DNA from: Raillietiella orientalis | Lineage: Eukaryota | Reading direction: 5' to 3' | Length of the DNA: 64,000 bases | Assembly: GCA_036172245.1 (NCBI GenBank) | Contig: JAYWIR010000054.1 | Location: 558,001 to 622,000, forward strand | The notes under the pieces: model-generated | Database searches by the model: none | Told to the model about the DNA's origin: nothing | What the model saw: only the letters and a program-made list of their open reading frames with translations | Part shown: piece after piece, positions 11,590 through 64,000 of the stretch | How positions within the stretch are numbered: the first letter of the stretch is position 1 | Layout: each line of letters opens with the position of its first letter | Made by a program: the position numbers and the translations under genes

Positions 11590-12850
11590 ACGTACAAGAA
11601 AAAAATAAGACTGAATGAAAGACTGCTGCTTAGGGCGGTAGGTCCTACCAGAGTTTGTGTGATCTGGTGAAAAGTCAGTTGACTTGCCGCTGAGGCCCAC
11701 CCCGGGGAATGAAGTGTACCGAGAAGAGAAATAAAAAACCTATTCAGCTGTCCATGTGGGAGGAAGGGAGGGTCATCGGTATTCCCCCAAGGTTTTCTCC
11801 ATCCTTTACAAGATGCTGGCAGAGATCTGCTCTCAAATCCACTAGGTGGGGTCATTCGCTGTCCTCTTAACTTCTTCTTGGTTCTGATTGTGATGGCATC
11901 CCTGTCGTACTGCTCTCTTTCGGCGGCACTTAGTGCTCCGACTGTGCGACAGAGGCAGGAGACACTTGCGACTGACAGGAGCGTGGCAGGAGACACTGCT
12001 TTGCACAAGAAGACTTTAACATGTCCATGGGATGGTCCCTCGGAAGCAGCAGGGCAATTGAGATACTCCTACACACCCGTCAGAGGGCAGCACAGTACTC
12101 TGTGCAGCCTCAGAGCTTTGTCCTTTCCGTGCTCTTTCACTCACTTTGCTTTCTAGCCGTGGGGTCTCCTCCACCCTACAGCTAGGAAGCACCTTGCTAC
12201 CTCTCTTGGCGCCCGGAGTCCAACGGCAGCAAGCAGGCAAGTCGAACAAAGAGGTCTTCAGCGGGATGCGCGCTTCGTCTTGTCTGGCAGCGGAGAAAAA
12301 TGTGACCGAATCTGGAGAGCATTCCGGAAGCGAAGCTTCTCCCATCTTTCATAAGCTTTCTCTTCTCGTTTTGAAAGATCTCGGAAGCTCTGTACCTTCA
12401 TGAAGGGGAAACATGATTCCACGACGTCGCTTCCTGCCTTCTTCGACTGCCTTCCCCTGCTGACGTCACCCCATAAAGGGTTATGATTGCCACAGAAACA
12501 GTCGCCGCTGCAGCGAGAAAGCAGGACGCTGTACATCCGGAGAGCCTTCGCCTCGGTCATTCGAGTTTCCTCGACGTGGACTCACCCAGGAAGACGATTC
12601 CTTGGCTCTGGTGGTACTGGACTGCACCTGCGGTCACTCTGAATGGAAAACTGCTTTACCCAATAAAGCACTCCCATCTCGAATGCAGCGGCAGCACTGG
12701 GACCACGGAGAAGAAGTCTGCTCCGAAAAGGTGGAATGCTCGCCGGGTCCAGAAGCGGGTCCAGGAGGGTCCTTCTTGGAAAGTCGGGGGAGGGAAGGGG
12801 AGATGTTCCCTCACTCTCTTGCTCTCCGTGAAGAATTTTTTCCCGCGGTC
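11590..12850 (-). mobile_element. Highly degenerate L1/Tx1-like 3' portion
   Basis: 11790-11865 aligns by eye with 13250-13325 (CATCCTTT..A.GATGC.GGCA...GGTGGGG.CAT). The minus-strand remnant LHRVLCC...NCPAASEGPSHGHV..FLC resembles the C-terminal Cys/His finger. Boundaries approximate. Confidence 0.5.
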
Positions 12851-13069: not shown

Positions 13070-14560
13070 GTGGTCACACCGGTTGTCCAATCACGTCCTT
13101 TCCGGTTCTAACCTGCCAGGTTACCGGTTCGCATATCGGTACACCACGGCAGCACTGGGAGAGAGGCGAGCAAAGAAAAAGAAAATAAAAATAAATAGAA
13201 AAACTTGGGAGGGGTACTGGAAGGGGTCGCGTCCTGATAAGGGCGGTCTTCTGCATCCTTTCGAGGATGCCGGCAAGTTCACACTGCATATGATCCAGGG
13301 TGGGGCCATCTCGTTGTCATCCCCGTGAATCGGACTGCAAAGTGGGTGTGGTATCCATGTTGCTGCGCCCTCCGGTGTCGCTCCACCCCCCCCCCCCCCC
13401 CCCCCACAATCCCGCGGATGCAACAAAGTGCTGCTGGGGATGCGGCAGGCATGAGAGCGTCGCTCAGGAAGATGCGCTTTAAAACGTCTCTGGCGTTGCC
13501 TCCAGGGGTACCAAGAGTCGCGACAAAGCGTCCCTAAAGGGGCGGAGGACAACACAGTCCATTAGCATGTGCGGAAGGGACTCCCGCTCCCTGCACCTTG
13601 CACAGTTTGGATCTACACACCCCTGTGTCGAATGATGCCGGAGGGCGTTGCACGGAAGGCACCAGTGCAGCAGCAGCAGCAGTAGCGACGACTCCTGCCA
13701 CTTCAAAGGGAGAGTGCGGCTGTCCGTGAGCACCGGGGGTCACTGCAGATCTTCCACCGGAAGTCCCAGTAGCTCGTCTCGTCGCAACAGTCCTCGAGGG
13801 ATGCACTCGGGGCTTCAACGTCCGTTAGCTGGCCCATCGTCCACTCACCTGGTCCTTTCCTCCTTCCATAGATTCCCATGGAGACCTCCCATCTAGCCGC
13901 GAGGCTGCTGCCCATTTCTTCCCTCAGGGAAGGCTGAGTTACGGCAAGAGAGGGTGATAACCCAGCCCACGCACATTTCAGCAGGTGTTCCAGGAGTTTT
14001 CCGGAGCGAGTAGTTGCCATGAGAACAGCTAAGCAAGCACTGCATCTGTTCCCCGGGCGTGGCTCCTCGTGCTGCGCCCACGTGTATAGGTTGCCCTGAA
14101 ACCAGTCGCCATCATCCGTGGGTCTGCAGGAGATGCAGCGGATGTTCCTCCTGGTGAGCGTGGCCATCTGCTGAAGCTGTGGTCCACAGTGGGAGAGGCT
14201 GCGGCGACGGCGCGCAAGGAAGGACACGAGTCCCGCTCTGGATGAGGATGCTGGCTCCAGGTGGTGCGGCAACCGGGAAGAGGGCTCCTCGTGAAGGTCC
14301 GGCCAGCTTCTGGATCGCTTATTGACCCCATCTGGGGTCTTCGGGCACGGACGCCGGGGCGACTGACTTGCCCACCCGCAGGGATTCCTGGAACTCATCG
14401 CTGATCGGGATTTTCCTGGAGCTTCACACGAATCCCTTAAAGAAGAGAGGCCACCCCGTTCCCCCTCCCGCTCCCTCCCACTTTCCCGAGCGATTCCATC
14501 AATCAGATGTGAACGGCTCTCCCAGGATGATCCATATCCTCGGTCGTCCCAAGCCCGGAG
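13070..14560 (-). mobile_element. Degenerate L1/Tx1-like non-LTR retrotransposon, RT C-terminus + zf-RVT finger + 3' UTR
   Basis: LLLHWCLPCNALRHH...DPNCARCRERESLPHMLMDC is a CxxC-E(S/T)xxH-C zf-RVT motif typical of L1-clade ORF2. Clear homology to 15500-16260, including a T-rich 3' UTR. Confidence 0.75.
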
Positions 14561-15467
14561 GGATCAATTATTAAAAAACCTCCCGTCGCAAGCGTCCCGC
14601 ATCAGTGGATGTTCCGACTGCAATCCCGGGAGGACAAGGGGGGGGGGGAGGGGAATGCTGGCGCTGTCTCCTCCTCGTTGGTGACGAACTCGACTCGGCG
14701 CTGGTTCGAATTGGCGCTCTCAGGGTGTTGCTACCTTCTTCCTCTTTTCCCCTGCCGACCTCCCTCCTTGCGGCCGGGAACATCGCGGCGCCGGGCTTGC
14801 CAGGTCGGCGGGAAGCAAAGGGAAGGGAAGAGGAACGCCGCCCCATACTACTGGCCGCTCCCGAGAGTCGGAGTGGCCCTTTCGAGCGGGATTTTCGCGC
14901 GGCTCAGGGAACGTTCGAAAGAGGAGGAGGGGGGGAATGCCGAGGGGCTTGCCGCTGAGCTTCGGCACCGGGAGGAACGGTGGGGGGCGACCGCCGCGAG
15001 GGTGAAAAATGCCTCTTGCAGGAGGGAGGGAGGGGAGCGTTGATGAAAGTGAAAGTGACCACGGGAGCGATATTGAGCGAGCACGCGACGGTAGATCTCG
15101 GGAGTCCGAATCCCATTCAGGAGGAGGAGGGAGGAAGGATAGAACGAAGGAAGAAGGGAGGAGGAAGGAAGGAGGAGCAGAAAGGAAGGAGGAGGGAAGA
15201 TGAGGAGGATTGATTGACCGCTGCAGCGCGTGGGTGAGCAGAAGTAGGGTGTGGGTACCCGTGGTCGAATCTCCGCGCCTCACTCCCCGCATCTTGCCCG
15301 GTGCATTTCGCACACGCGCGCGCGGGTTGGGGTGGGTGGGGACGCGCGAACAACGTAGAATTTTAACTACCTGCTCCTCCTCCTCTTCCCGCCCTCCTCG
15401 CGATGGGGGCCGGGGATCCTTGAAGCACATGCACACCGCTGCGTTTTCACTCGGGGACGCCTGGGGA

Positions 15468-17575
15468 ATTTATTTAAAGATTAAATAGACATTTATAGTT
15501 TGTGTGGTTGGACTGGTGGTCCAACCACGTTCTTCTGGTATACAACCTGCCGTGTTACTGGTTCGCAGATCAGTGAGGTCCACCGCGGCAGCAGAGAGGA
15601 GGGGCCAAACAAAAGGAAGAAGAAATAAACAAAACAGTTTGGAGGGAGGAGTACCGGGAAGGGATCACAGTCTGCTAGGGGCGGTCCTCTGCATCCTTTG
15701 GAGGATGCCGGCAAGCTTTGTATACATGTCCAAGTGGCGCCATCTGACCACTATCTGCAAAAAGCGAAGAGCGAAGTGGATGGCGTCGCTCCACGCCGCC
15801 TTGATCCCTCGGAGGCAGCAAACTGCTGCAAGGGCTGCGGCTGGCTGCAGGTTGTCACGCACAAAGAGTCGCACAACGTCCCTGGGATTGCCTCAAGGGA
15901 CTCCAAGCAAAGCGTTCCCAAAGGGACCGGAGGGCAACTTAGTCCACTAGCAGGTGCGGGAGGGATTCCCGCTCCCTGCACCTTGCACAGTTGGGGTCCA
16001 CACACCCTGTGCCCAGTAATGCCAGAGGGCATTGCACGGAAGGCCCCAGTGCAGCAGCAGCAGCAGTAGCGACGACTCCTGCCACTTCAAAGGGAGAGTG
16101 CGGCTGTCCGTGAGCACCGGGGGTCACTGCAGATCTTCCAATGAAAGAACCAGTAGCTCACCCCATCGCAGCAGTCCTCGATGGGGGGCAATTGGGGTCT
16201 CCGTGTCCGTTAGCTGGCCCGTCGTCCACCCTCCTCGTCTTTATTTCCTATCGGAGATTCCGGCACTGAACTCCGTTTTGTCGCTGCCTATTTGTACCTT
16301 AGGGAAGGCAGCGCTGCAGCGAGGGAAGTCCTGCCTGCCTCATGGAATATATACCGCACGCTCCAGGAGATATCTTCCGATATCTCCTGGAGATATCTTC
16401 CGATATCTCCTGGAGCGTGCAGTTGTTATGCGCGCAAAGGAAACGTCGCACCTTTTCCGCGCTTGGCTCTGGATCCTCGCCCGCGCGCGGATGGTTTCCC
16501 GCAACCAGGCGCTACCGTTTGCGGGGCGGCACGGGATAAGTACGCTATTCCTGGCCAGCGTGGCCGCCTGCCGAAGGCGCAGTCCGAGGCTGCATGTTAG
16601 CAAGCTGCACCCAAAGGTCACCATCCTGCTCCGTTAGCCGATCTCCGTGCTCGGCAGCGCTCCGGTCAGCTCTTCCGAGGTCAGTTCTTCGAGGAGAAAA
16701 GCCAGAACGGCTGGCCGCGCCCTGCACACTCGGAGGTCACATTTCGACCGCCCTGTAGCTGTAGTTGATCCAGCCGACGGACCGCGGTGTAGTCTATTGT
16801 TCTTGAAACGCTGTCCAATCCTCCCGAAGGCGCGTGCAACCCTTCAAGGTATAGGGGGCAATCCCGAAGGGATGACCCCATGGGTATCGAAAGGGCTCAG
16901 GAGGAAGGAGTGTTTGTTCCTCCTACGCTTGATGGGGGAACCCCGAAGGGAGTCCTCTCCCTGGTCGTCCCCGAGAAGGACCATCTCTTCCTGCTCTCTT
17001 CCTCCTACTTCTCCTTGTCCCTTCCTCCACCCTTCCTCTTCCTCCTGCTCTTCCTCATTCTTTCCAGAGGTAGGCGCTCCTCATTTCTTCCCCGGAGAGA
17101 GCTCCAGGAAAGGATCCGCACCTGGTTTCCTCCTCTGAAGAGAACCGCGAAGGGGCGCTTCCGAATTTCCCTGAGGGTCGCTCCCTGGAGGGAGCGGCGC
17201 GCTTCATGCACTCTGGAGAGGCAGTTCCTTGAGGAAGGGGGACAACCGACTCCATGGTACGCGATTGAGGGTAAATGGGGAAGCTTCATTTTCACGGACG
17301 GAGGCAACCCTGAGAGACTCCTCGATTCCTGGGTTGACCCCACAGGGTCAACTTCCAATCCCATCCAGTCAGCGGGATCATCTGGGGGGTTTCCGGCTTT
17401 TTCCAGTGCCGAATCCGAATGGACCAACCAGCGCCATCCTGAGGGGGGGCACCCAAAACCCACGACACACTCACATTATTTCCTCGCGGTCGACCCTTCC
17501 TTCCCCGGGAGGGATTCGAACCTGCGACGCCTAGTGGTACAGTGCGCGCAGACCGCGGCCGCCCGGCCGCCAGCG
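15468..17575 (-). mobile_element. ~2.1-kb L1/Tx1-like element: tRNA-like head, ORF1 N-terminal region, internal deletion, RT C-terminus, zf-RVT, 3' UTR ending near AATAAA
   Basis: B-box GGTTCGAATCCC at 17522-17511. The 5' body is shared with the copies at 27.4-28.06 kb, 32.5-32.7 kb and 35.05-35.47 kb. DPNCARCRERESLPHLLVD finger at ~15940-16010; minus-strand AATAAA near 15470. Confidence 0.7.
16356..16420. repeat. Palindrome with internal 23-nt tandem duplication
   Basis: GCACGCTCCAGGAGATATC ... GATATCTCCTGGAGCGTGC forms a perfect 19-bp stem; ATATCTTCCGATATCTCCTGGAG occurs twice in tandem. Confidence 0.95.
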
Positions 17576-18079
17576 AGTTGCTTCGGGAGCTCCTGAGGAT
17601 GCGGCAAGACCATTGCTGCGCGTCCCGGGGAGGCGTTGAACCCCTCGAATTTCTCTGCGCAAGGATGACACGCAAAATCGTGAAGCGTTCCACATTTTTT
17701 TGTACACGCTTCGGCTGTACATATACTAAAATTGGGAGGGAATGATCGCGACATTTTTCCTTCCGAGGGGAGGAGCTCCCCTCCTCCTCTTTTCCCTCCT
17801 CTCTTCCGGTCGCCTCCGCAAGGACGTGGAAGCAGCTCCGGAACGTGTCCGGGACAGGGGAGGGGGGCAGGCCGTCATGGCAACGGTAGGGGGAGGAAAG
17901 GATCGGCAGCGAGTCGCGGCGTTCCTGAACTCCGGTCCGCACCCAGTGGGCCCAACGTCGGGCTCGCTGACCATCGGGCCGAGTTCCGACCAAAAAGAAC
18001 TAGTCGCAAGTCACCCACGAACGGCCCCGCGTCGGAGGGAAGAGGGCACACAGTACCCCGGGAGAGCCTTGGAAGGATA

Positions 18080-19575: not shown

Positions 19576-19576
19576 C

Positions 19577-19613
19577 TCGCTTCTCGACCTTTTGGCTAAG
19601 ATCAAAGTGTAGT
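19577..19613 (+). pseudogene. U2: U2 snRNA 5' fragment (nt 2-38)
   Basis: TCGCTTCTCGACCTTTTGGCTAAGATCAAAGTGTAGT matches U2 nt 2-38 at 36/37 positions and ends at GTGTAGT. Confidence 0.92.
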
Positions 19614-23649: not shown

Positions 23650-24160
23650 TGGGTTCTGCGAAAATTATCGGCGTGGACCGTGGACTCGCATGTGGGCTTG
23701 GCAAATGTATCTACCTTGTACACGCTACATAAGTTTACACTATCCATGCTGGGAATGGACGCATACACTTAAGTTCCTATAGTTACCTTAGCAACGGCAG
23801 TAATCAAAACTCTATTTATATCGTCTGACTGTTCTCGGTTTCTCTCGGTGTCGTACAGAATTTATTGTATGGTATTTCACCTCTGTGATATCCTAAAAAT
23901 GTGAATGATTTATTCAAATTATAACGATCGATTTGAAATAAATAACGTATGTGTTTCGGAGAAAGCAAACGATTCTATCCAATGTGGTGTGAATAAACAA
24001 TTACAATGGCAACTTGAATCAGCACTTTAGAAAGTCGCTCGGTGCCTCTGATAGAGCGCGCGAAAGATCATTCGGTCCACGGAGGTCGCGGCTGCGACCT
24101 GCGTGCCGTCGACGCAGAAGAGTTTCAGTCTGACGAGCCCCGCACCCAAAGGGTTAACGA
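23650..24160. repeat. Left arm of a ~500-bp inverted repeat (partner 31976-32470)
   Basis: Direct reverse-complement alignment; the core 23830-24125 is nearly identical and the outer part is more diverged. Confidence 0.9.
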
Positions 24161-24315
24161 TACTCTCCTTACTTCTGGCAACAGCATAAACATAAAACGC
24201 TTCTTTATCCATCTCGCATATTCCCAAGTATTAGACCACAACTAACAAAGCTACCTGTAAAAGACATCCCACAAATAATAATAATAAACATTTGCATTCC
24301 TCAATGAATATTACG

Positions 24316-24491
24316 CCTTTCCAGCCTACTAATCACTCTTCTTACATCAGCTCTATTCCAGCATGCCACCCACAACCAACCCCATTATATCACAGCAAAG
24401 CCAAAACAACCTACTGTACCACAAGCTGTCGTCATTCCCGTTAAAATATCTCGGCACCTATACATAGCCATTTCCATACCAACCACCCTTG
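24316..24491. repeat. Left arm of a 176-bp inverted repeat (partner 25463-25638)
   Basis: Reverse-complement match with only two mismatches seen. Confidence 0.95.
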
Positions 24492-25462
24492 CTGAAGATG
24501 CAAAGATAACATCAAACTTCCACCCACCTCCCCATGCCCCCCTTCTTCAAACCCACCCACGAGTCATCAACTGTTGCATGTCTCTTCCTCCCGCTTCGCA
24601 GTTGCCTCTAACGGATGGGTTAACAATGCCTCTATTAGGATTGCGTCAACAATGAACGATTGTTGCCAAGCAGCCCCTCCATTGTTGACCCTATTCCAGT
24701 CGAGGGAGAAACCCCGCGCGCACAAAAAAGCCAAAAGAGGGAAGGGGAGGAACGGTTAGAAAAAAAAAAAAAAACGCGCAATTACAAATCTCCTCCCCCC
24801 GCCTAATGGGGCGCCGACCGATTGGATTGCAGCGGGGCGCAGGCTGGGGAAGGCATGAGAGGCATGAAACTTGCCATGATCGCTGCGAGAAGGGAGAGCT
24901 CTTCCCCTCCTCCTCCTCCTCTCCCCTTGGAGCACGTCGTCCCTCTTCTCCCAGCCGAAGACCCGCAGCCACGAGCGCGGGCATCGCGATCGCACTGCTC
25001 CTTCGACGACCACGACCGCCCAGACGGGCCCGCGCAGCACGGTCGAACGGCTCCTCATAGGCTACGGTGCGATGTGCCGGGACTCAGCGAGAGGCGGCAC
25101 TCCGGACGTGCACTCTGCTTGTGCTCCCTGAGGTTCCCCTTCCCTGGTATCCCGCGATTAGGGCGCGAGATGGATGGAAGCTGCCACGACGGCAGACCGC
25201 CAAATGATGGCACGGCGCGGAAGGCATCCGGCACGTCCTCCAAAGACGCAGGTAGGGGTTTCAGGGGTGGGGCGGGGTGGAGATGCGGAGGAGGAGAAAC
25301 TTTCGTTTCTTTGCCCTTCCGAGAGGGGCTCATTGCCCTCTTCCTCCTCTCTCTTTCCCTCTCTCGGAGCTGGCGGGACCCTGGGGGGTTTCTCGGTGTG
25401 TCGCGCTCCTCGGAAAGTTTAACCCGAGGCATTCGGAGAGGGACGTTCGCAAGGGACGTCAT

Positions 25463-25638: not shown

Positions 25639-26399
25639 TCCCATCTCTGGGAGCGAGGAAACTCCCCTCCTTGCTTTCGGCGCGGCTGAATCCTCCCGAG
25701 GGAGGGGGCCAGGGAAGTAGGTGCAGAGGCCGCGTTGGATCCGGAGCTCGCGGTTTCCCGAGATGCGACCACCCGAGGAAATTCGCCTTCCGGGACGCGT
25801 CATTCCCGTCAGCATCCCTGAGATCTTCCAGACCGTCAAGGAGAAGGTGTGAATGCATTCACGGAGGATCGACCACGCATATTCTCCTTCCTCATCCCTC
25901 CCGACTCCCCAGCCTCAGTTTCGGGGGTTGCTACCCATGCGCAGTTGCCGCTGTAATTTTGTTGCTGTTGCCACGGTTATTTTTTATTTCGGAAGGGGAG
26001 GAGCAGGGCAGGATCCGGGAGCAACAGGAACTTCGAAAGCCTTATGGTGCCAGCGCGTGCAGCTACGGCGTCCTGAACTTGCGGGTGAAGCGAGAGTGGC
26101 GTGTCGTAGCCGCATCTTCCATCTCCATGCGTGAAGATGATCTCTAGCTTGGGGAGGTGGCGTTTCCGCAGTAGCGCCGTCGCACCGTCAGAGCACTGGA
26201 GGAAACCCTTCTTCCTTCCTCCTCCTCTTCTTTTCCTTCCTTCACCTTCTTCCTCTCCCTTCCTCTTTCTTTCTCTTCCTTTTTTTCTCTCCTCTTCTTA
26301 CTTCTTTCGTTCTTTCTTTCCTTCCTCTCCCTTCCCTTCCCGTTCTTCTTGTTGTTGTCCCTCTTCTTTTCCCACTTAAGATCCCTCGGAGGAACGTGA

Positions 26400-28060
26400 C
26401 CTGCCTCAGGAGCAACCCTTTCCCTCCCTCTGCGGCACGCCGTCGGAGGCTCTTCCGGATGCGACGTGAGGAGATGGTGCGACGAACTCGTGGGTTTCCT
26501 GCGACCCCGAGGTCGGAGGAGGAAAGACGGGGAAGGAGGAAGGTGTCCCTCCAGAAGGGGATCCCTCAGTGGACCCTGGGTGGTGCGTCGACCTTCCGAG
26601 AAAGTGCCGATTGCTCTAGACCACGGTTCGTTTTCCGATCTACACCCAGGACGTGGTTTCCCTCGGAAACGCCCCCCGGTTAGCTTACCGGCCGCTTCCC
26701 TGAGAGGAGGAGAACAATCCGGGGAGTTTCTTCCTCGAGACCAGATGCGCATTCCCATCTCGAATCGGGTGCGCCTAAAGCAAGTGCGACGGCCGTCCGG
26801 GGACCATGCGGCTTCCTTCATGGACCGATGGACAACGCTCGAGATCATCCGCGTGCATCCCTCGGTTGCGTCCACGGTGACGGTGGTGTCGAAACGGAGG
26901 CGCTACAGAGCTCACCCAGGCGTGAGCGATGGGAGTCACTGCAGAGGACTGTGGCTGAAACCTCCGCTGTCGTTTGGGATGGCACGAGCGAGCCCAGAGG
27001 CAAGGAAAGTAGTCGCTGAAACCCCGTCGGGTGCTGCAGTTCTGCACTCCGGACCACCGCGTAGGAGTCCCCCACTAGGGCTGCCGCTCGGCGCCGACCA
27101 CGAGGAGGCTGTCCTGTCCGCGGAGGGACATGCTTGAGTCCTGCTTCCCCTTTCGTCCTTTCCCGGGCACCCTGAGGATCTGGGAGCAGCCTGGTGAGTC
27201 CAGTTGCATTCCATTTCCGTTGCGACGACCGTCGCTTCCTGTCTACTTCGAGGCGCGAACTTCTCCGGCGCGGTTTCCTTTTCCTTCAGTCTTACCATAC
27301 GCAGGCTTCCCTTGCCCAGGGAACCCGAGACTTCAGGGCGCGCGTAGAGGAGCCGCCGCTTGGCGCTCCCGTCGGTTCCTGTGGCCGGCCGCCGCCCCGA
27401 CCCCGCGCGCTCCATCTCCCTGGACAGCATCCTCCCGGAAGTTAAACTCACACAGAAGAGGATGACATCGGGGCGTGGCAGGCGAGTCCGGGCGCCGCCT
27501 CCGGGGCGCAGGCCTTCGGTTAGGGGGCGACACCGCAGGGACCACCCTACGAATCCGGGAAGGCTCCTGAGGAAGGGGTGTCCTCTCCTTAAAGCTTCGG
27601 AGGGGCACCTCCGCTCTGATTGCCCCCGAGTTAAATCCCGGATGGAGACTCGCCCTTATTCTCTCCGGATGGGGTCGCTCCTCGTTTCCTCTCCGGAGGG
27701 ACTCCTGCTTCTCCTGGTTCCCCTCCGCTGAAGGGAACCCCGAAGCCGGTTTCTTTGAAGGGTCGCTCCCAACAGTCTGGAGGGGTGGTCTCCAGAAGAA
27801 GGCATCAACGCAACAGAGGGTCTACCTCCCTTCCTTCCCGAGGGGGAAGGGGACCCGGTCAGTGAACGGGGGCTATCCGGCTTCCCTCTAGTACAGCATC
27901 CGAATGGGACAACCAGCACCATCCTGCGGGGGGGGAATCGAAACTTCGACGATGGCGCATCCTTCGTTCTTGGAGTTGGTCCTCCCTTCACCTGGTGGGA
28001 TTCGAACCCGCAACGGTCGGGCGCGCGGAGTCTGCGGCTGCCAACGCAGCCCACTGGGGA
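26400..28060 (-). mobile_element. L1/Tx1-like 5' portion: tRNA-like head + decayed ORF1
   Basis: B-box at 28008-27997; shared body with 17575-16760. Near 26805-26770, CCCGGACGGCCG(T)CGCACTTGCTTTAGGCGC gives PGRP-RTCFR(C/R) with one frameshift, resembling the 'PGQPRTCFRC' zinc-knuckle entry of L1/Tx1 ORF1. Confidence 0.6.
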
Positions 28061-28229
28061 GTGGGTCCCGATGTCCCCCCTCCCCAGTTTGCATGTGCGA
28101 CTACTTCCTCTACCGATGAATCTCCAATCGTCTCTCGGCCGGCAACGTCATCTCTTCTGGATCTGGAGATGCGGCCAGCCTCCAAGGAAAACCGCATTAC
28201 TCTTGAGAAGAGGCGGCTCCTGGATTCCG

Positions 28230-28420
28230 GGAACAATCATGGAGTCAGCCGGCGGGCGTCCACCAGTGCCGCACCCGAAGCCCACAGTCCAAGCAGCTCC
28301 ATCCCGCAGGGGAAACTCGGAACCCACGACGATCCACCCGTTCCTCGGCGTCGGTCCCCTCCCCCGGGCGGGATTCGAATCCGCGACGCCTGGTGATACC
28401 GCGCGGCCGCCAGCCCGAGT
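28230..28420 (-). mobile_element. Isolated tRNA-like head of the same repeat family
   Basis: CTGGCGGCCGCGCGG...CCAGGCGTCGCGGATTCGAATCCCGCCCGGGGGAGGGGACCGACGCCGAG aligns with the heads at 17.5, 28.0 and 35.4 kb. Confidence 0.7.
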
Positions 28421-28429
28421 ATTTGACCG

Positions 28430-29340
28430 TGGTCCTCCCGGCATGCCTCCCGCGGAGCCGCTGGAAGGCGACGGGCGCTCGCTCCCAAGGTGACGCGCCT
28501 CCTTCCCCCCATCCCGACCACCGACCGCCGACCTTCGGCGGGAGCGTCTGGAACGCGCGTGGAGGTCCGGGAAGGAGATCTCGGGAGGGAACTGTCGCCG
28601 AAGGAGTGGGGCTGGTTTGCGAGACTCTCCCTTCGTAGAGGAATATAAGGCGAGGGAACGCTCGGCGTCGATTCTCAGCGGAGTCCCCGCCGGACGCCGG
28701 TGACCGGTCGCATAGCATCAAGCAGTAGGGCACTCGGGAAGTGAGGCGGAGAGCTGCCACCCCCTCAGGGAGGAAAACCCGCCGAACGGAAGGGATCTGC
28801 AGTTCCCGGAAGCGAATCTTACAGGAAGGAGATCTTGGTCTTCCGGGTCGTGCCTGCCCTCGAGCGCCGGGGTCCCTTGGCATTTCTGCCTCGGGATGAA
28901 GGTTTCCCACCCTTGGACCCGGTGGTTCCTTTCGTTTCGGCGCAGCAGCCGCTGCCTCGTGGTGCGCCGACGGACCACGCGAGGAGCGCGAGGCTTTGTG
29001 GCATCCCCACTTTTCCTCCCTGCTGACCCTTCGAAGCTGCCCAAGGACTCCCAGCCTTCTTTTCTGGAAGCAAGCGCCGGGCAGGGGGACGGGACGTAGC
29101 CAACGCTGCCACTGCTTCGGGCGTTCTGCGTGCCTCCGTGGGATGGGACGCAGCGCAAGCAAACCCGCACGCGTCAGGGGACGCGTGTCCGGGTAACCCA
29201 GCAACCCATCCGGGATGGCGTGTCTTTCCTTTCCGGGGCTGCAAATCAGCACCTTCTGGCTGTTCACAAGGTGTGGAAATAGCGTGGACCGCCGCTGAGA
29301 TTCCCAGGAAGCGGTGCCCATCCAAATACCGAGCAATCAC
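28430..29340 (-). mobile_element. Degenerate L1/Tx1-like RT C-terminal fragment
   Basis: Remnants ARYLDG/LGIW and CFQKRRLGVLGQL correspond to the 'KYLG' and 'PxxxGGLG' landmarks. There is an abrupt junction with AT-rich DNA at ~29340. Confidence 0.5.
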
Positions 29341-32504: not shown

Positions 32505-32690
32505 AGTTATAGGGGGTGCCCCGGGAAGGAACCACCTATGAATCCAGGAAGGCTCCCAAGGAAGGAGTCCGTTTCTCTCACGCTTGGGAGGCAACCCGAA
32601 GGGAGTCTCTACCTTACTCTCCCCGGAGGGACTCTTGGTAAGGATCCGCTCCTTGTTTCCTCTCCTGAAGAGAACCCCGAAGCCTCCCGG
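32505..32690 (-). mobile_element. Fragment of the shared ORF1 N-terminal body of the tRNA-headed family
   Basis: AAGGATCCGC.CCT.GTTTCCTC..CTGAAGAGAACC.CGAAG is shared with 17110-17152, 27700-27745 and 35118-35160. Confidence 0.65.
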
Positions 32691-34198
32691 ACTGCTGGGC
32701 GGCGCCGAGGAAGGCCAGTGTGCGTGCCTCAGGAGCACTTTCGCGGCGGCTTCGAGGACTGCGCGGGAGGGTAGGACGAGCCTCTGGGCTGCGGGGCTCC
32801 TCCGAGTGCTGCAACCTGCGGTGCATCGGCAAAGCAAGGTCAGGCGACCGGAGGGACGATCGAGGAGGCCGCCTGAGAGCGCGCGTTCCCCGGTAGGGAG
32901 ACTGCGGTGGCCGGGATTCGGTCCTCACCCGCTCCCTCCTCCCCTCTCGCCGTGGATGAGCGGACTGAGCGAAAAGAACCGGTCGCCCCTGAGAAAAGGA
33001 AAAGAAACGGGCCGAGGTAGGTTCTGGATCGTAATTAGCCACCACCGGCTTCAGGACGAGCTGCGCCCCTCTCCCACTGCTTTCCGTGGGCTGTAGTCGG
33101 AACCTCCCCTTCATGACAGGGGACCCAACAGCCGAGGAGAAGATCAGAGACCCCCGTGCGAGGGAGCCGTTCCGACTCCTCTTCTAAGGTCCACCAGGGG
33201 AAGACTCTGCGGATCGTGTGCGGCGGCGTAGCTGCGGATGCAGGAGGGAAGGGGGGGAGCACGGTCGACGTAATCGGAGAGGCGATCGATCCGCTCACGG
33301 CCTGCACGTTCCCCTCGACTCGCGCGCAAGCATCTCACCGCGTTCACAGGTTCGGTGTGACCTTTCCCACCGCCGTGGAGGCTCCGGTCCTCACCGGGCG
33401 TCGCCCCGAGGCGGAGACGCAGGGAAACCGCTGGAGGGCCGGGCAGGAGAACTGCTCCCTCCCGAGAGACGGGGCTGCTTCGCGTGCTGCCACACAGGGA
33501 TTCCAGGGAGCCCTTCGGCGGTGGCAGCTGCTGAAATCCTTAAAATCCTCCCACGCAGAGATGCCGGATGCCTCCGGCACGCGGGGCGCGAGCTCTTCCT
33601 GATGCCGCTGCCGCCACCGCATGGAAGCCGGGCAGGCCTCGATCCACCTGCCAGCAGATCCGGCTGGAGGGGTCGGCAGCACAACGAACCCGGGAACTTG
33701 GCAGCAGGGGCTGCTGCATGAGGAGTCGTGCCCCGCCCGTCCGTCGTGGAAGATGCGTTCCGATCCAGTTCGCCCCCGCGGATCCTTCCGGGTCAGGGAG
33801 CGTTCCTTCCTCAGAGAGGGATGAGAAGGGTTCGAACGCAAGCGGCCGCGATTCCAGAAGGGTTCATCCCTTTCTCCTTCTCTGGAAAAGGAAGCGCGGG
33901 AAAGGGAATGTTAGTTCCACTCCAGAACCACTCCCAGCGAAGGACACTGAGCTGGCACCTCACACGGTGCCTCGCTGCAGTTTTGCGCACCGTCTACGCC
34001 TGGAATGCAAAGGGTGAGCCTCACGGACGGCGCCACCGGCACCCACGTTCAAGGGAGAGTCGCACGCGCGCGCTCGGCTTCGTGACACGCGGCACGCTAA
34101 CGGCTCCGGGGTCAACGCGCTCCCCACGAAATGGGGATCACGCTCCCTTTCCCACTTCCCGAGAGGACAGCCCTAACGCTCGTTCCTTCCAAGTTCAG

Positions 34199-37100
34199 AT
34201 GCTCTTCGTGGACGGCAGCAGCTCCGCGAACGGCAAGCAGAGGAGCGCGGACCAGCAAAAGATGAAGCAGAGGCGCAGCCGCACCAACTTCACCATCGAG
34301 CAGCTGCAAGAGCTGGAAAAGTTGTTCGACGAGACCCACTACCCGGATGCCTTCATGAGAGAGGACCTCAGCCAGAGGCTAGGACTTAGCGAAGGGAGAG
34401 TGCAGGTGAGCTCGAATCCTCTCTTTACCTCCTCCTCCTCCTCCTCTTCGTCTTCTTTTCGAATAGTTCCCACGACCCCCGCCACAGGTCGCTGCGCGCT
34501 CTGACCTCGCCCTTCGATGGCGGGCTCTGAGACCACCGAAATCCTCTCCCGCGGAGCACGCACTCGTTCTGGCTGTCGCTCTCGAGGAGCCCCGGAACCT
34601 CGAGGGAGCACGGGTGGCTGCATCTGCGAGGAGTTCCAAAGCGAGCAGCACCCTTTGCACCTCGGTGGATGGGAGACGAGGCCCGTCGCTCCGGAGACGG
34701 CGGCGCCGGAAGAGTGGACGTGAGGAGGAACCCGACCGCGCGCCCGCGCTGCCGGACGTTTTTCGAGTGGTGGATTCGCGTGCGTCGAGGTGGAACAAGC
34801 CAGTGACGCACGCGCGCGGCGGTGCCGGTACGACGTGCCCGTGGGGCGCGCCGACGGCCCAGCCCCTCCAGAGTGCGCCGCTTCTGCGCTCGGAGAGTGG
34901 GAGGCCTCCGTCCTCCCTTTGAGGTTCTTCGGTTTTCGCTCCTTTCCTTCTAGCTTGTTTCTTATTTTTGGTTCTCAAAGTGCTGAAGAACCGTCTGCCC
35001 CCTTCAGGGGGACTCACGAAGCTCTTTAAAACTGCCCACGCCACCCGGCGTAGCTCTTCAAGTTAGGCGGTGAACCTGAAGGGAAACACCTCTTCCTTAT
35101 TCTCTCCGGACCCCGGAAAGGATCCGGTCCTGGTTTCCTCCTCCGAAGAGAACCCTGAAGGGATGCTTCCTAATTTTCTCCTAAGGAAGCTCCCCGGAGG
35201 GAGCAGCGCTATTCTTGCACTCTGGAGGGGCAACTCCGGAGGGAACCGGCGCTCCTTTATTCACGGAAGGACCCCGGAGGGTCCACTTCCCGGGCAGTCA
35301 ACGAGGACATCCAAAGCCTGTAGACCAGCCTGGAGTCATCTTGCGGGGGTGACTCAAAACCCATGACGCAACATCTCTCGGCGTCGGTCCTTCCCCCGGT
35401 GGGATTCGAACCAGCAACGCCTGGTGGTGTCGCGCGCAGAGACCGCAACCTCAGGCCCGCAGCCAACGCGGGCTGTTTGTAGGTGGCGGGTTAGGGCCGG
35501 GACATTCTCAAACCCTTACCCAGCTACGGTGATGCTGGGATAACTAACTCGCAGCAGATCTTTAGAGCATCAATCACGTGTACACGTACAACTGTGTACT
35601 ATTCAAGGTCATGCATTCACCAAGCGAAGGACGACGTCCTGTATGGTCAGCGCAGGACCCGCCGTGCAAGCCCGAAATCCATCCGCTGGTTAACCAGCGT
35701 TGTGACCGAACCGGCCCGACTGAACCCGTTTCTTCTAAAGCTCTTCCACAGGCAGAGAGGGCAGGGGTGCCAGACGCACACGGGTCGGCGCGCCGAAAGG
35801 AACTCGCGGGGAGACTGCGGGCTCGCAAAGATCTGGGACTCGCGAGGATCCGAACATCCTTGGTTCCCCTGGGAAAGTACCACCGGGGGAGGCTCACTCT
35901 GAACCTTATTGCACAATGCACAATTGCACAATTAAACTAAGAATGGAAACCTTAGGAATCCACGTGGCTTTGCCAGGCGGCTTCCCTGGGAAGGGAAGGG
36001 GGGGAGAGAGAGAAGGTCACCTTGCTCTGGGTTTCCCCCTCGGCGCCGCTGTCCGCGACGAGAGGAGCGCGAGAGCGCGCGGTCACGTGATTGCTCCTGC
36101 CTTGGTCCAGAAAGTAGCTTCTCTCTCGCGCGCGCACGCGCGAGTAGGGGTGCCCTTAATTGACGAACAGGGCCGCGCGCATCTCCCCGCGGAAGGTCCC
36201 CCTCTCGTCTCTTTCCCCCACTGCGCCCCATTATTTCATATTTTGTTCCTCCCTCATCCCGGATCGGCCTCCCATATTTCACGTTGTCCCGCACTAAGCA
36301 ACGCGGTCCTGGCGATTCATCAAAACGCTCCGCTTAATGCGATTAAACTGCGGGGATTGAATTATGCAGAGCATAAAACAGTGATTTAGTGCTGAGGATG
36401 CGACCATCGCTAACTTGTTTATCCCTTGGGATGAAAATGACTCCATCGCAAATACGATTTTAAGCTGCAGAGGGCAGGAGCAGTTACGCCGGCGCGCGAG
36501 TTCGCGCTCTCCCCTGCGCACGGATGCTGCCGCTAGACAGAGGACGGACCGCTTCGTCCTTCCGTCTCCTCGCGGAGCACGCGGGGGCGGGAAAGATTCC
36601 TCCTCTCCCCACCCAACTTCTCCTCCTCCTCCTCCTTCCTCTCTTCCTCCTTCCTCCTTCTTCCTCCTCTTCCTCCCCCTTCCGTGGTTTCCGTCGCGTC
36701 TCTCGTGGCCCTAACTCTCCAGATCCCGACCGGGTCGCTCGCTCGGAGTCGGTAGCTCCAGGAGAGATTCCCCCGTCCCTCGTGTGCCTGGAAATGGAAG
36801 GGCCGCGCCTGTAAACCAGGGAGGGAAGCAGCCTCCCTCCGGCACGCGCGGTCCCCGGAGACCAGGTCCGTGTTTCTTGACCGTCTGCGGAAGGAATGCG
36901 ACAGCCTGGAAGCCCTCATTTGGCGGCCCGGTCAGCGGAAGCCTCACCCGAAGGGGCGCACCGGGAGCTGGCCGAGAGAATGAAGCCCCGCCCGCCTGTC
37001 CGCTCCAGGGGGCACTCATCTTCGGGGAGTTTGCTTGGAAGACGAGCAGCCAGCCTGAGGGAGGCTCCATCGACTGCGGAGGTTGCTGCAAAGCCAGACT

Positions 37101-55155: not shown

Positions 55156-55870
55156 TTTATTGCTAAACTATCCGAGGACAAAAGTTCCCAGACAAAGGGT
55201 ACGGAGGTACGGAGGAAAGGATTCCCGACACGCAGGTCTGTAAAACCGGAACGGGAGGGAGGGGACCACAAATACATATATAAAAAAGGATATGGTGGTG
55301 GTGTGTGTGGGGGGGGGGGGTTGGCGACAGGAATCTTTGGCTTCGGATGTTCCTTCCTTTCAGAACTGGCGTTGGATGTCGAAAACCCCTTTTCTCACTT
55401 CTTCTTGAAGATGAAGCTACCTGGCGGCCGTCGTCATGTCGTCGGCTAAACCGATGACCTCTCGAAAAATCGCCTGCAACTCCAACTGGAGGCGGGTCTT
55501 GTCGATGGCGCGGATGCAACAGATCGTTGCGACAACCACACCTAACAACAGGTCGCCTGGCGTGAAGAAGCGGCGCATGAAATCCCCTGCGGTGTCCCCC
55601 TGGAGCAGGAGAGCTGAGGCCATCCTCCGTCACAGTCTTTGGAGGGCACTGCAGTCCAGGAGCAGGTGCGGGAGCGTTTCTGCTTCTCCGCACCTTTTAC
55701 AGTTCGGGGAGGAAACTCCCCCGGAAACAGCGTTGCTACGCTGGTTGCAATGGAAACCCCAATGCACCAGCAAGAGCACGTCCTGCCCCCATGGAAGGGG
55801 GAACACAGAAGTGTCCACGCACGAGGGAGGGACAACAAGTTCTTCGGGGGAGCACACTCTTATTCCGCTG
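55156..55870 (-). mobile_element. L1/Tx1-like ORF2 C-terminus + 3' UTR
   Basis: LLLVHWGFHCNQRSNAVSGGVSSPNCKRCGEAETLPHLLLDC is a clear zf-RVT finger, followed by an in-frame TGA, continued coding-like sequence, a UTR and minus-strand AATAAA near 55160. Confidence 0.8.
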
Positions 55871-58410: not shown

Positions 58411-60226
58411 CTACTTTGTATGGATTGAATACTGGTATGCATGAAATGGGCTGGAGTAAGGAGACAAGTGCCATCGATCTCCAAATAATTTCCGGAAACT
58501 GGAGCGATTCGATATTCAAATTTCAAATGCAATTTCTACATACAATGTGCGGATGCCGGATTCCGATCGTTTCCAGGGGGCATCATCTGGTTCTCTGGGC
58601 AAAGGCCCCTGCACAGCTGCTTCGACTTCACCAAGCACAGGCGACTCACCACTGCTGACATGAGAAACAACCCTCAAAAGTGTCCGACTTCTCACTGGCT
58701 TGTCTCCTGAGACTGGAAACGTTCCAAATCCTCTTGCAGTTCCTGAACACCCAGTTCACTTGGATGCTCTTGAATGATATCTCGAAGTTCATCAAAGGAA
58801 AAGCAAGTTTGTTCTGCATCAGCAGGATTCTGATCTCTCTTCACAGGAGTGAATCCCTAATCCAACACTGAAGAGTTTTGACACACAGCATTTACTGACC
58901 TGATTTTGTATCACATCCTCCCTATCCTTGTGCAACAAGCTAAGTTCTTTGTTCAAAAGGTGGCACTGGTGAATCTGCTGCTGCAGTTGAAGTTGTAAAG
59001 CAGCTTTCTCTTCAATGAGTATCTTGGCTTGATTCTGAAAGATTTGTTTCTTGCGTCTTATCTCTTGCTTCTGTTGAATGCACTCAGACAAACTCAGCTG
59101 CAACTGAATATGGCTGTCAGGCAAAAATTCGATTCCTGTGTTCATCCCAATGCAAGCAGGAATGGGATGAGCCATCATTGCGAGGACAACTTACATTCTC
59201 AATAGCTGAAGTTTGCTGCTCTATCTGTTCCTCCAATTTATGAATTTGCTCCCTCTGCCGTTCTCCAGAAATTTGCAAGTGGACCAGGGCTTCCATATCC
59301 ACATCCCTATAGTGAACTTCTGTAGCATAGAGCTTTGCCACATGCTACAGCATCGAACCTTGACTTTGGCCCTTCCTTTCTTCCAGTTCCTGAAGCAACT
59401 TCCTATTCTCAGTCTGGAGCTTCTCCATTATGGCCATTAAATCTTGGGTCTCTTTTTTCCAGTTTTCCTCCAAGCTGTCCAATTCCTATCACCAGAACTG
59501 TGAAAATCTCACCAGTCCTATCAACAATCAACAACATGAATGATCCTTAATCATTCATATTGTTGACAATTCACATTTTTCTTTGGATTAACAATATCGG
59601 ATAGACAGGATTTACAGCAGCACGTCCTTGAAATTCTAAAATTTATTAAAGAAAAGGGCTTTCACAGCAATCATTTGACTTTAAAGTGAAAACTCTTACG
59701 TATCACTGCGCTAGAGAAAAATAAAACCTGGAAAATCCACGGACGTTTCGATTTCTGGAGCACAACCTCTCCAGGAATTTCAAACAATTCTGTAATAATA
59801 GCATTTCAAAACCACTTTCGATCTACAATGTGATTATAGTTACGTTACACCGCCTACAGAATGCAATTTACAACTGATGTACACAACATCCATAACTGTT
59901 TGACCAAGCATGAATTCAATTAAAAAGGTATTACTAACCTTCTCAAGTCGTTTACACGTTTCCGTTTTTTCATCCTTTTCCTGCTGAACCCTCGACAACT
60001 TTGTTGTAAGTTCTTGGACAAAATAGTCTTCTTTTTCGTGAAATATTGCAAATGATTCCAACTGCTCCAAAATAAGAATAACTTTGGGCATGAGGTTTTT
60101 TATGCATGTTTCTCCATTCTCCTCTATCATAAAAACGATATCTTTGCCTATATCGGCTGCAATATCGTACACGTTTGCTACTGTTACATGAGGGTACAAC
60201 TGTGACTGATCCAGCAGCACTTCCAT
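58411..60226 (-). CDS. RILPL: RILP-like protein (Rab effector/dynein adaptor), 367 aa. Exons 60226-59939, 59485-59359, 59319-59195, 59103-58900, 58856-58696, 58654-58544, 58498-58411
   Basis: RH1 motif VTVANVYDIAADIGKD...G...IKNLMPKVILILEQLE, then coiled coil ELDSLEENWKKETQDL and RH2-like FSFDELRDIIQE. The C-terminus VQGPLPREPDDAPWKRSESGIRTFFRKLF resembles arthropod Rilpl. GT-AG introns with consistent phases. Confidence 0.92.
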
Positions 60227-63200
60227 GGAGGTGCAGGTCAACTTTATGGATGTACGGGTCAAACTAAACGCACGGCCTTGGGCTGTGATCACCAGGATTT
60301 CAGAAAGCACATCACACTGCACCCATAATCATCGTGGTGATTTCTACTGCACAAATCATCAAAGAGGACACCGGTGAACTGTGGGCCGCCTTTACTCTTC
60401 GTAATTTGAAAAACTGCTCCATACACTTCGAGAACACTTGCAGATGCCAGAAAGCATCCAAAAACCTGGTTGACTGCAATGCAGGAGTGACCACGCGCCT
60501 CTGCAGCCACTTGGACTCTTCCCCGTTGCTGAGGGCCTCCTGATCAACGCTGGACCCGAATCTCAGGGTGGCCAACTTCGCAGGCAGACCTCTAAAGGAA
60601 TGACTCAAATCATCGAGCGCGATGCAGATGCTTCCGTCTGCAGATGGCACTCGGCGATTTATCCAGACAAAACAAACAAACAAACACACGCGCAGGGAAA
60701 AAAGGAAAAAAGGGCATTCCGTCATGTTATCTCGGTTTCCGCAGCTTGACAAAGAACTGAAGGAAACGCATGTGGGCAACACCCACCACTTTACAAAAAA
60801 GGCCTTTTGGTCTATACAACTTCGGGGCTGTTAGCCAGACGAGTGACTCATTGCTGTACCGTGGCCCTCTCTTCAATCTTGCTCAGCAGACATTCACAAC
60901 ACGGATGTACATACAGGAATATACATTTTCGATTATTGTTCTATTGTGTACAGTCGTTTTTACCTAGCCTGGTCGCGCTCAAACTCGACTTCTTCAGGAA
61001 GGGAATTCTTTGCCCGGACAAGTGTTCGAGATGAACACTCAAGTTGCTGCAGAAACGTAAAACCAGAGAGATCGGCTGTTCTTGCATGCATAATCGATTG
61101 AGTTGTTATCTGGTTAAATTTCGCGCCGTTCACAGAAAATTTCAGCGGACCGAAGATTTTGTTTTATTCAGTTGATTAATCTCGTTGCTGAAGGGACGGA
61201 TTTCAAAATGAAATCGAATGAAATAAAACGAAGCAGAAATGTATCGATACCACTGAATTTTGCTGATTTTTTTTTTTTTTCCTCTTCCAAGCTGCTTGCT
61301 GACTTTTTTGAAGCGGTTGCGAACCTAAAAAATTTGGAATACAAAATGCACATCTTTTAGCACTCCATGAAACAAATGAGTGCGTTCAAGAAATCGTCCT
61401 TGCTACCTGGGTGCATTTAAGACCGAGCATCCATTAACATAAATTTCGATTCATTTTGCTAAAGGGTGTGGTCATCATCTTTTGCACTCAGAAAATGTTT
61501 AGATTTATCATTCTGCACTCCTCCCAACACCTGGTGCATAAATTGAAAGCACAATGCAGGATATAGTTGTCGGCGATGATGTTTTTTTTTTCCTTCTCTG
61601 GATGCGACCGGTCTTCCCTTTTCCTTACGTCCTGATTTAATTTTCATTTACGCAGCTGTTGGTTTTCGTTCATGAAAAAGATTTCTTCATCCTGAGGAAT
61701 TTTCGTTCCTTTGAAGATAAGTCGACACCCATCGCCCTAAATATTAACACGGACATTTTGTTGGACTACTGCCGTGAAATCCAGAGTTGGCGATCGCAAT
61801 GAAGTTGCCATTCGAGTAGATGATGACGGATAAAAAAAAATTGCAAGATCTTTTATACTATATTAAAAACCAAAGCTCATATAAAGGTTGCAAACAGCCT
61901 GGCATGTCCGATGCTCGTCTCCTCCGAACAGGCAGAAAAGCAACGGATAAAAGGCAGCCATTTCGGTGTTTAACGTTCCCTCGAAAACCGTTCGTTCTTG
62001 ATGTCTTTTTCGTCGAAATGTAGATCGGAAATTTCTATTTGAGGGATTTTTTTTTTCCCCAGAAATATAAATTTTCAAGTAGCCGATTCTGCCTTTCTTT
62101 CTTTGCGTCTTCAGCCATTGAACTTTCGTCCAAACAGTATGAAGGAGGTGACACAGCAGAGCTCGAGGGACGTTTCCAAGAGGCGGGCGGTTCTCGAGTC
62201 TCTTAGCGAGCCCAAAGGGGATTTCAATTAAAAAAAAAAAAAAAAGTTTAAATGCGTACACCGACTTTTAATGTGAAATTCTCACATCGTTTTGCAGATT
62301 TACACCGAGAACTCTTATTTTTCAAGTCTTACACGAGATGTTTCGGAATTCGCATCAAGCTCTTCTATTCCTTCTTCGTTCCAATCTCAACACGTGAAAA
62401 ATCAACCTCTCAGCTCGGCCGTAGTTTTCACAAAGGTTTCTTCCACACGTACATTCTTCCATTTTGCCGTTTTCCTCAGCAGCAGGTGTTGCTGGAGTCT
62501 GAGCGATTGCCATTAATCGAATTCTGCAGTTCCGTGTACCCCATGTCATGGGAGCGCCTCGTGACACGGGAGCCCATCGGACTCATTACCACCAACCCCA
62601 TTTTCTTGCTCGAATGATGTGCTTTTGTGCTAATTCCTTCCTAAGGTGCTGAGCTGATTTTCAGCCGGACCGTGGGGTCACTGAGAAACGGAAGAAAATT
62701 ATCCCACCGTGGACGACTCTGCATGGGAAAGGGATGATGGCCAGTGAGAAAAGCTAAGAACCTTCCACGACGCAGAGGTCACGCATCTCATTTTTGCACT
62801 CGGAAGCACCCTCGTGGCAACGCAAACTCCAACACACCTCCGTACTTCTCAAGGTAGAAGACTTGGAATTCGAAATTCACTTTATCGCTTCCAAGTGATT
62901 TCCTGTCAGCGGATCAATCCACCCCCGCCTCATCTCACGTATCCAAGAATTTCTCGGCCGATTTTCTAAACAGAGACCTCTGCGACTTCAACACCAACAC
63001 TGAGTGATTAAGAACTTGAAGAAGGGGCTGAAAAGCCGTTACGAAGAAACTTGCTCAGTAAATAAGATGCAAGCGGGTCCATTTTCTTTCACGCTGCTGC
63101 CCAGTTCTCACCCGAATTATGTTGCTCTGTACATTCTCGCAGTTTCTGTTCAAATAGCGCGTTCCAAAAGAACCTATATGCCCATTAGCTGGGAACATGC

Positions 63201-63640: not shown

Positions 63641-64000
63641 AAAGGGATTCATTGAAATTTAATTATTCCCAAAGAAAGCCTCGCGCCGCCGCCAGGTGGG
63701 CGTCAAGAGCGAGGAGGTGATTTGGTTTTCACCCGGGATCGCCGGGACGTTCGTTTAAACAAACTCTCGTTGGGTGGCTACTGGCCTTCGGATGATGGAG
63801 TTCCTTTTTGGGTTTTCTTTTTTTTGCCTTCGCTGTTTTCCTTCCAGCTTTTTCTTTCAGGTTTTCATTTTTCTTGGTTCGCCAAGTTCCTCAAGAACTG
63901 TCTCGCGCCTGGCGGCTCACGCAGCTCTTTAACGCCGTTCCATCCACCCGAGTGAGCGTGTAATTCTTCAAGATAGAGGGTACACCGGGAGATGACCATC

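Follow-up and report, generated by a model that had tools for sequence, protein, structure and literature searches.

Putative targeting of a tRNA-headed SINE-like repeat by at least two L1/Tx1-type LINE families in Raillietiella orientalis

Introduction

Known insertion targets of LINEs with target specificity include arrays of rRNA, snRNA and tRNA, microsatellites and certain DNA and LTR transposons. Among crocodilian Tx1 elements, Tx1-Mar inserts into Mariner-N4_AMi in antisense at nt ~240 and in sense at nt ~830, with different families at the two sites, other families enter LTR and Harbinger elements, and there are Tx1 families with U1 or U2 heads (Kojima 2015, PMC4494074, in its sections on these families). 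Keno, a member of the Tx1 clade, and Utopia insert between nt 38 and nt 39 of U2, leaving U2 nt 1–38 before the element (PMC4640811, in its account of U2 targets).

The LINEs analyzed here resemble the crocodilian Tx1 elements, as described in those sections of PMC4494074, in several respects. They are APE-type non-LTR elements that prefer another dispersed repeat; two sites in the target are used in opposite orientations by different families, as by Tx1-Mar; tandem copies sandwich a target duplication; and 5′-truncated copies show independence. That study names DNA transposons, LTR elements, microsatellites and snRNA or 5S genes as targets; the target here is a tRNA-headed SINE-like repeat.

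The starting point was a 64,000-nt stretch of R. orientalis DNA (the window; JAYWIR010000054.1, positions 558,001 to 622,000, on our contig C54), which was compared with the 210 Mb of genome searched. Coordinates below are those of the window. An earlier note, made from the letters alone, had read four minus-strand tRNA-like heads as the 5′ end of a LINE with a captured tRNA-derived promoter or, alternatively, as a tRNA- or SINE-targeting Tx1 family that co-mobilizes its target. Sequence comparison identifies the heads as parts of a SINE-like repeat into which two or more target-specific L1/Tx1-type LINE families appear to insert, using it as their landing pad.

A tRNA-headed SINE-like family

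Counts throughout refer to the best-scoring 20–40 matches per search. With the head as query, all 40 scored places in the genome matched (the best 40 of 148 candidates), and the body returned 2,008 candidates. Fragments of the repeat were present in 5 of 30 tRNA-gene loci (92 kb) and at 6 places in the window, a density that suggests, as a rough estimate, on the order of ten thousand fragments in the genome.

Alignments of 12 and 20 copies gave a non-coding unit of ~0.9 kb. It opens with a 74-nt tRNA-like head carrying an A box and a B box, continues with a non-coding body containing sub-repeats of 42–45 nt and an A-rich linker that ends at nt 852 in CATCATCC, and closes with ~58 nt ending in a T-run and then an A-run, which are missing from many truncated copies. 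A 2.2-kb 'SINE with long LINE tail', obtained from the 20-copy alignment, was discarded after copy-by-copy mapping of junctions. The 5′ edge is sharp. Of 99 distinct heads, 68 begin no later than nt 12, and the upstream flanks of 67 heads have no sequence in common. The earlier note had asked whether head-only copies possess their own tails. They do: at four distinct loci the whole unit runs through its own T-run/A-run tail with nothing inserted, and three more loci show this in part.

Against 49 tRNAs of the same genome, the head scored 57, compared to a maximum of 49 in 200 full shuffles. The signal comes from the T arm (5′ part alone, p 0.095), and the best scores were to Arg(CCT), Asp(GTC) and Arg(TCT), with Leu(TAG) lower in this incomplete set of 49 with one Leu. 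Candidate target duplications around the SINE reached a score of at least 8 in 2 of 15 cases (permutation p 0.17), in copies that are ~18% diverged. No run of four T occurs in consensus nt 1–852, which is compatible with Pol III transcription. The A/B-box head, non-coding body, A-rich 3′ end, sharp 5′ edge and thousands of dispersed copies are shared with tRNA-derived SINEs (SINE2); typical members differ in size, ~0.9 kb being long for a SINE. We call the repeat SINE-like on its structure, and it was probably transcribed by Pol III and copied by LINE machinery.

The four minus-strand B-box/T-arm motifs in the window are real and start at 35412, 28381 (a GATTCG variant), 28008 and 17522, ending about where the earlier note had placed them. 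The A-box-like start and downstream body common to all four were borne out by alignment to the family consensus, to which the copies are 65–82% identical. ARAGORN called no tRNA in the 64 kb, and Rfam gave no tRNA match to E 1. The most complete of the four copies (34916–35471, minus strand) covers family nt 2–839, breaks off ~12 nt short of the target site of LINE family S1 (defined below) and has no LINE behind it. The copy at 16807–17575 (minus) covers nt 5–512 and 547–708 and likewise stops short of this site. At 28.0 kb lies a decayed, 3′-truncated copy (27519–28060, minus; B box 28008–27998) comprising nt 21–212 and 403–667, directly upstream of which is a second, shorter copy (28256–28430, minus; B box 28381–28371), aligned over nt 31–180 with weaker similarity further on. 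None of the four carries a LINE at a target site; they are ordinary dead, truncated and unoccupied SINEs. The window also holds a headless body fragment (32510–32682, minus; nt 477–665) and a SINE 3′ part (63735–63998, minus; nt 641–852) that includes the S1 target site and continues for ~15 nt beyond it. The latter is followed by a LINE-like 3′ end, a 30–40-nt scrap of LINE 3′-terminal motif (63735–63790, minus) ~20 nt past the S1 site.

The earlier note had further proposed that the body at 28.06–26.4 kb runs on into ORF1-like sequence with a PGRP-RTCFR zinc-knuckle remnant. The family match stops at 27519, which corresponds to consensus nt 667, and the adjoining 26350–27480 (minus) is a single-copy GC-rich flank distinct from ORF1 of the LINEs of this genome. 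As DNA it matched itself only (one candidate, in a search from which diverged copies may escape), and two of its minus-strand frames searched as protein against the genome likewise returned only themselves (25 and 21 candidates scored). Of the window's 177 long frames, 100 were run against Pfam, among them every one in the 26.4–27.5-kb region, and no zinc knuckle was found; tblastn with five intact ORF1 proteins from R. orientalis yielded no hit below E 4 in this region. A profile built from 48 ORF1 pieces scored −0.7 bits on the stretch, whereas two decayed ORF1 sequences used as controls reached 129 and 229 bits. The PGRP and RTCFR strings occupy different frames with one Cys and lack the CxxC-x-GH-x4-C knuckle present in real ORF1s of this genome. 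By DNA, protein, Pfam, tblastn, profile and knuckle tests alike, the proposed ORF1 was thus rejected.

Sense insertions of LINE family S1

Elsewhere in the genome, many copies of the SINE continue 3′ into the C-terminal part of an L1/Tx1-type ORF2 and a 3′ untranslated region (UTR), followed by the same 58-nt tail. We refer to this LINE family as S1. On the SINE side, the junction has a constant position at nt ~852 (proposed cut region nt ~846–858), while the LINE side varies: 45 junctions, three of which represent one locus fetched twice and a segmental duplicate, gave 32 distinct LINE start points spread over 1.36 kb, and some truncation points recur. Copies start at the 5′ UTR of the LINE itself (L190, L206, L214, L216 and L226/227), at the start of ORF2 (L211 and L220) or within the 3′ UTR. 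In L190, SINE body is followed by ORF1, endonuclease and reverse transcriptase (RT), and the full-length S1 copy matches both ORFs; in L226/227 the whole SINE head and body precede ORF1.

The association was also examined from the LINE side. In a set of 30 loci, counting the query locus and retrieved with a query that held ~20–40 nt of SINE linker, the SINE lay directly before the LINE in 25, with 24 of these at nt ~850. The remainder comprised one full-length element at the same site, one locus with the SINE tail behind the LINE and one in which other insertions separate the LINE from a SINE piece 6 kb upstream; no SINE link was found at two loci (L138 and L147), which look like other families. 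In a second set of 30 loci, which has a 3′-side bias and four loci in common with the first, 24 LINEs abut the SINE, three run off the locus and three do not abut. Random insertion within 10 nt of the S1 site would be expected in <0.1% of cases, as estimated from fragment density.

Target duplications were scored after dropping eight refetched or duplicated loci. At the 5′ junction, 16 of 42 copies continue into at least four of the six bases of TAGGCC (chance 3.8%, p 1e-12), and at the 3′ end, 44 of 50 LINEs are followed by at least five of the seven bases of ATCATCC. The S1 target duplication is thus 7–13 bp, ATCATCC(TAGGCC). Between the tandem S1 copies of L246, the short motif stands alone, with no SINE tail.

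The two parts of the composites differ in divergence and in descent. Identity to consensus was 86.3% for LINE parts compared to 81.6% for SINE parts, and the LINE part was the less diverged one in 45 of 47 pairs, a count that contains duplicates. A SINE consensus that mixes subfamilies, as this one may, would exaggerate the apparent age of the SINE. The sharing of derived changes between copies was uncorrelated between SINE and LINE parts (rho −0.03, p 0.41), which argues that the composites are not the offspring of master copies. Amplification of composites from master copies was considered and dropped: pairs with the same junction share 5–31% of derived changes, against a background of 10–12%, segmental duplicates excepted. 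SINEU and the U1/U2-headed Tx1 families likewise have small-RNA-like sequence before LINE sequence, with the difference that the head there, as described in the relevant sections of PMC4494074, is part of the mobile unit, whereas here it has no co-descent with the LINE. The earlier note had asked whether full-length copies carry head, ORF1 and ORF2 within a single pair of target duplications; head and LINE show no co-descent, and duplications around the SINE–LINE composites were not significant (p 0.15). These arrangements are nested insertions. Of the earlier note's alternative, a Tx1-like family that targets the SINE, the targeting finds support across the genome, none of it from the four copies in the window, and co-mobilization of the target is unsupported for want of shared derived changes.

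The same data bear on an autonomous LINE whose 850-nt 5′ UTR opens with a captured tRNA-type Pol III promoter and whose short forms are internal deletions. Layouts of head, body, 5′ UTR and ORF1, with or without ORF2, do occur (L226/227 and L190), and U1 and U2 heads are found on some crocodilian Tx1 families (PMC4494074, in the sections cited above). In such an element, 5′ truncation should lose the head first. Here the head is kept, the left breakpoint is fixed and the LINE start varies over kilobases. The target duplication, a second family lying antisense within the same SINE (below), sister LINEs that open at the same short 5′ UTR motif without the head, and the lack of ORF1 in the window copy all speak against it, as do six runs of at least four T in the LINE 3′ UTR, since such runs would stop Pol III. 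A captured promoter is unsupported because the head belongs to a self-contained, tailed SINE, the adjacent LINE start differs in nearly every copy and the ORF1 similarity in the window fails, which is the outcome that the earlier note itself had set against it. We regard this explanation as largely refuted and extremely improbable.

A SINE tail follows the LINE at 29 of 50 filled sites, and at 11 of 25 in a less biased set. The missing tail was not found downstream of the broken sites within the 8-kb stretches of L113, L121, L122, L124, L125 and L126, and many LINE-free SINE copies likewise end at nt 852. Plain insertion does not explain this asymmetry of tails or the LINE-free stops at nt 852. 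Tail loss could reflect re-cutting with one-sided deletion, exchange between copies or internal priming. In L148/L155 and L237/L241, the LINE parts are almost the same, with 95% and 81% of their derived changes in common, and are attached to different SINE copies and junctions; these are inverted pairs, 23 and 67 kb apart, and may record gene conversion or exchange between insertions. At L017:963, the S1 target site is the exact point where two inverted SINE copies join.

The truncated flanks raise the question of how much sequence is recognized. If the LINEs recognized or primed on a 7–13-nt motif alone, the composites or motif-cut SINEs would have been moved or rearranged later. In keeping with this, only the first ~7 nt of the target are kept in about half of the S1 3′ flanks and in 5 of 20 flanks of the second family, and the two pairs above indicate that exchange between copies occurs. 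By our estimate, a chance 7-mer would be about as frequent as the SINE site, but in 25 of 30 loci it is SINE that borders the LINE on its 5′ side; SINE and LINE parts, moreover, show no co-descent. Just 1 of 67 heads has the motif ahead of it, and composites were therefore not inserted whole into motif sites. This account differs from target-primed insertion into the SINE only in the length of the recognized sequence, and we consider it decidedly improbable.

Antisense insertions of LINE family S2

A second LINE family, S2, occupies the SINE in the opposite orientation at nt ~177. Its full-length 5′ ends (n = 5; L207, L208, L213, L215 and L222) abut reverse-complemented SINE body ending at nt ~154–160, and L218 is a tandem S2. 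An S2 3′ end used as query gave 39 matches besides itself, and the 3′ flanks of the first 20 were examined: 14 of the 20 are antisense SINE beginning at nt 167–177, 11 of them exactly at 177. With three duplicates removed, antisense SINE was present in 12 of 18. Five of the six remaining flanks keep GTCAACC only.

The antisense orientation of S2 also weighs against template-switch chimeras, in which the 58-nt 3′ tail would be common to SINE and LINE and the RT would jump from LINE RNA to SINE RNA, as in U6–L1 chimeras. Such chimeric retrocopies are known (PMC4494074, in the passages on chimeras), and the same 58-nt end stands behind empty SINEs and many LINE copies. A jump of this kind should leave a SINE tail between the two parts, which was never seen, neither there nor between tandem S1 copies, and would need to occur in ~80% of copies. 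Related LINE families, moreover, all end at a homologous CCGGGTG motif just ahead of the tail. Template switching thus appears very improbable.

Related LINE families

Young intact relatives of these LINEs encode an ORF2 of ~1,170–1,220 aa with APE endonuclease, RT and zf-RVT domains (Pfam) and an ORF1 that resembles a ZCCHC3-type RNA-binding domain with zf-CCHC. The nearest solved structure to ORF2 is human L1 ORF2p (E 5e-46, compared to 3e-15 for R2), and in the RT, identity to any database protein does not exceed 34%. S1 and young family A come out as sisters with 99/99 support; S2 took no stable place in the tree, in which branches are long. By domain content and trees that held no named Tx1 elements (Tx1L, Keno, Kibi or Dewa), S1, S2 and their relatives are classed as L1/Tx1-type. 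No SINE match was found near young intact relatives in the 14 stretches fetched.

Among 56 LINE 3′ ends, other families too have family-specific flanks. One family has seven of seven ends at the same RT-coding motif of other LINEs (ORF2 aa ~575–582, KAFD-like region), six antisense and one sense (L023, L137, L181, L195, L201 and L204), and seems to target LINE RT genes. Pairs of other families end at ORF2 aa ~66, ~165, ~305 and ~1064. Young ORF2s with open frames of up to 1,217 aa (3,182 candidates) were located on contigs C136, C187, C32, C22 and C13, in dense nests ~4.4–5 kb apart that often lie on small contigs or near contig ends.

In the window, a 5′-truncated ORF2 C terminus with 3′ UTR (15444–16651, minus) belongs to a related L1/Tx1-type LINE that is neither S1 nor S2. 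It lies ~150 nt behind the 17.5-kb SINE copy, which we report as adjacency alone, with no claim of targeted insertion. A second 5′-truncated ORF2 C-terminal fragment (13110–14287, minus) is 68% like it. Further decayed ORF2 C-terminal fragments were located at 55504–55857 and 11760–12096 (both minus), and a near-perfect palindrome of 23-bp units (16352–16424) lies within the first LINE fragment.

Other features of the window

Two U2 snRNA pieces, each covering ~nt 1–38, were detected at 19576–19613 (plus) and 8210–8173 (minus), and U2 sequence from nt 39 onward stands behind a LINE-like 3′ end at locus L236. An open frame at L130 resembles the C terminus of a restriction-like endonuclease, suggesting a Utopia-like family. 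Because the window pieces end at the Keno/Utopia cut site and the LINE-like end in L236 precedes U2 nt 39, they are probably target flanks, a simpler reading than the recruited heads envisaged before. The likeness to Keno and Utopia (PMC4640811, in the account cited above) is that a target flank mimics a small-RNA head, here with both U2 pieces ending at nt 38; the target of the SINE-associated LINEs differs.

A U6 snRNA 3′ half with a T-run (17648–17699, plus; Rfam E 3e-6) lies a short distance upstream of the 17.5-kb SINE head in the opposite orientation, followed by a short piece similar to the U6 5′ part. The window further contains a homeodomain exon (33722–34504, plus; Pfam E 4e-15), ~0.4 kb from the 35.4-kb SINE copy, and a RILP RH1 exon (59840–60328, minus; E 5e-17). 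Two inverted repeat pairs were recorded, one of 513 bp with 89% identity (23650–24161 and 32472–31976) and one of 180 bp with 98% identity (24316–24495 and 25638–25459); the latter pair could be the ends of a DNA transposon-like element.

Discussion

Target-primed reverse transcription (TPRT) at a fixed sequence in pre-existing SINE copies, combined with random 5′ truncation, very probably accounts for the observed architecture, fixed sites, variable truncation, duplication, empty sites and independence of copies. In the proposed sequence of events, a long non-coding tRNA-headed SINE would first have spread, probably as a Pol III unit copied by LINE machinery, and L1/Tx1-type LINEs would then have evolved a sequence preference for it. 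S1 would cut at SINE nt ~846–858, insert in sense by TPRT and duplicate ATCATCC(TAGGCC), and S2 would insert antisense at nt ~177. Random 5′ truncation would leave head and body joined to any length of LINE, mimicking a tRNA-headed LINE. By analogy with the Tx1 and R1 clades (PMC4640811, in its treatment of target specificity), the endonuclease would carry the site specificity; which LINE moved the SINE is something we infer.

A more far-reaching proposal is a closed SINE–LINE dependency, in which S1-type machinery both copies the SINE at ATCATCC and lands in its copies, within a radiation of at least seven sister families whose retargeted APE endonucleases are aimed at the SINE or at each other's conserved coding motifs. 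Priming at ATCATCC would explain the many copies that stop at nt 852. We consider this dependency unlikely; if true, it would offer a natural panel for how APE endonucleases change specificity.

A search of mostly open-access literature, outside which Repbase reports or the supplements of PMC4494074 may hold an example, found no paper on a LINE that targets a tRNA-derived SINE. The habit of targeting a dispersed repeat is known, and the landing pad, a tRNA-headed SINE, is of a new kind. For genome annotation, the SINE–LINE nests are a warning, as they yield a false 2-kb 'tRNA-headed LINE' consensus. Young intact relatives with other apparent targets in the same genome allow the determinants of APE-endonuclease specificity to be compared directly. 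With one SINE, two fixed sites and two LINE families, the R. orientalis system adds a class to the targets of these elements, in which one genomic parasite appears to use another as a harmless, self-renewing landing pad.
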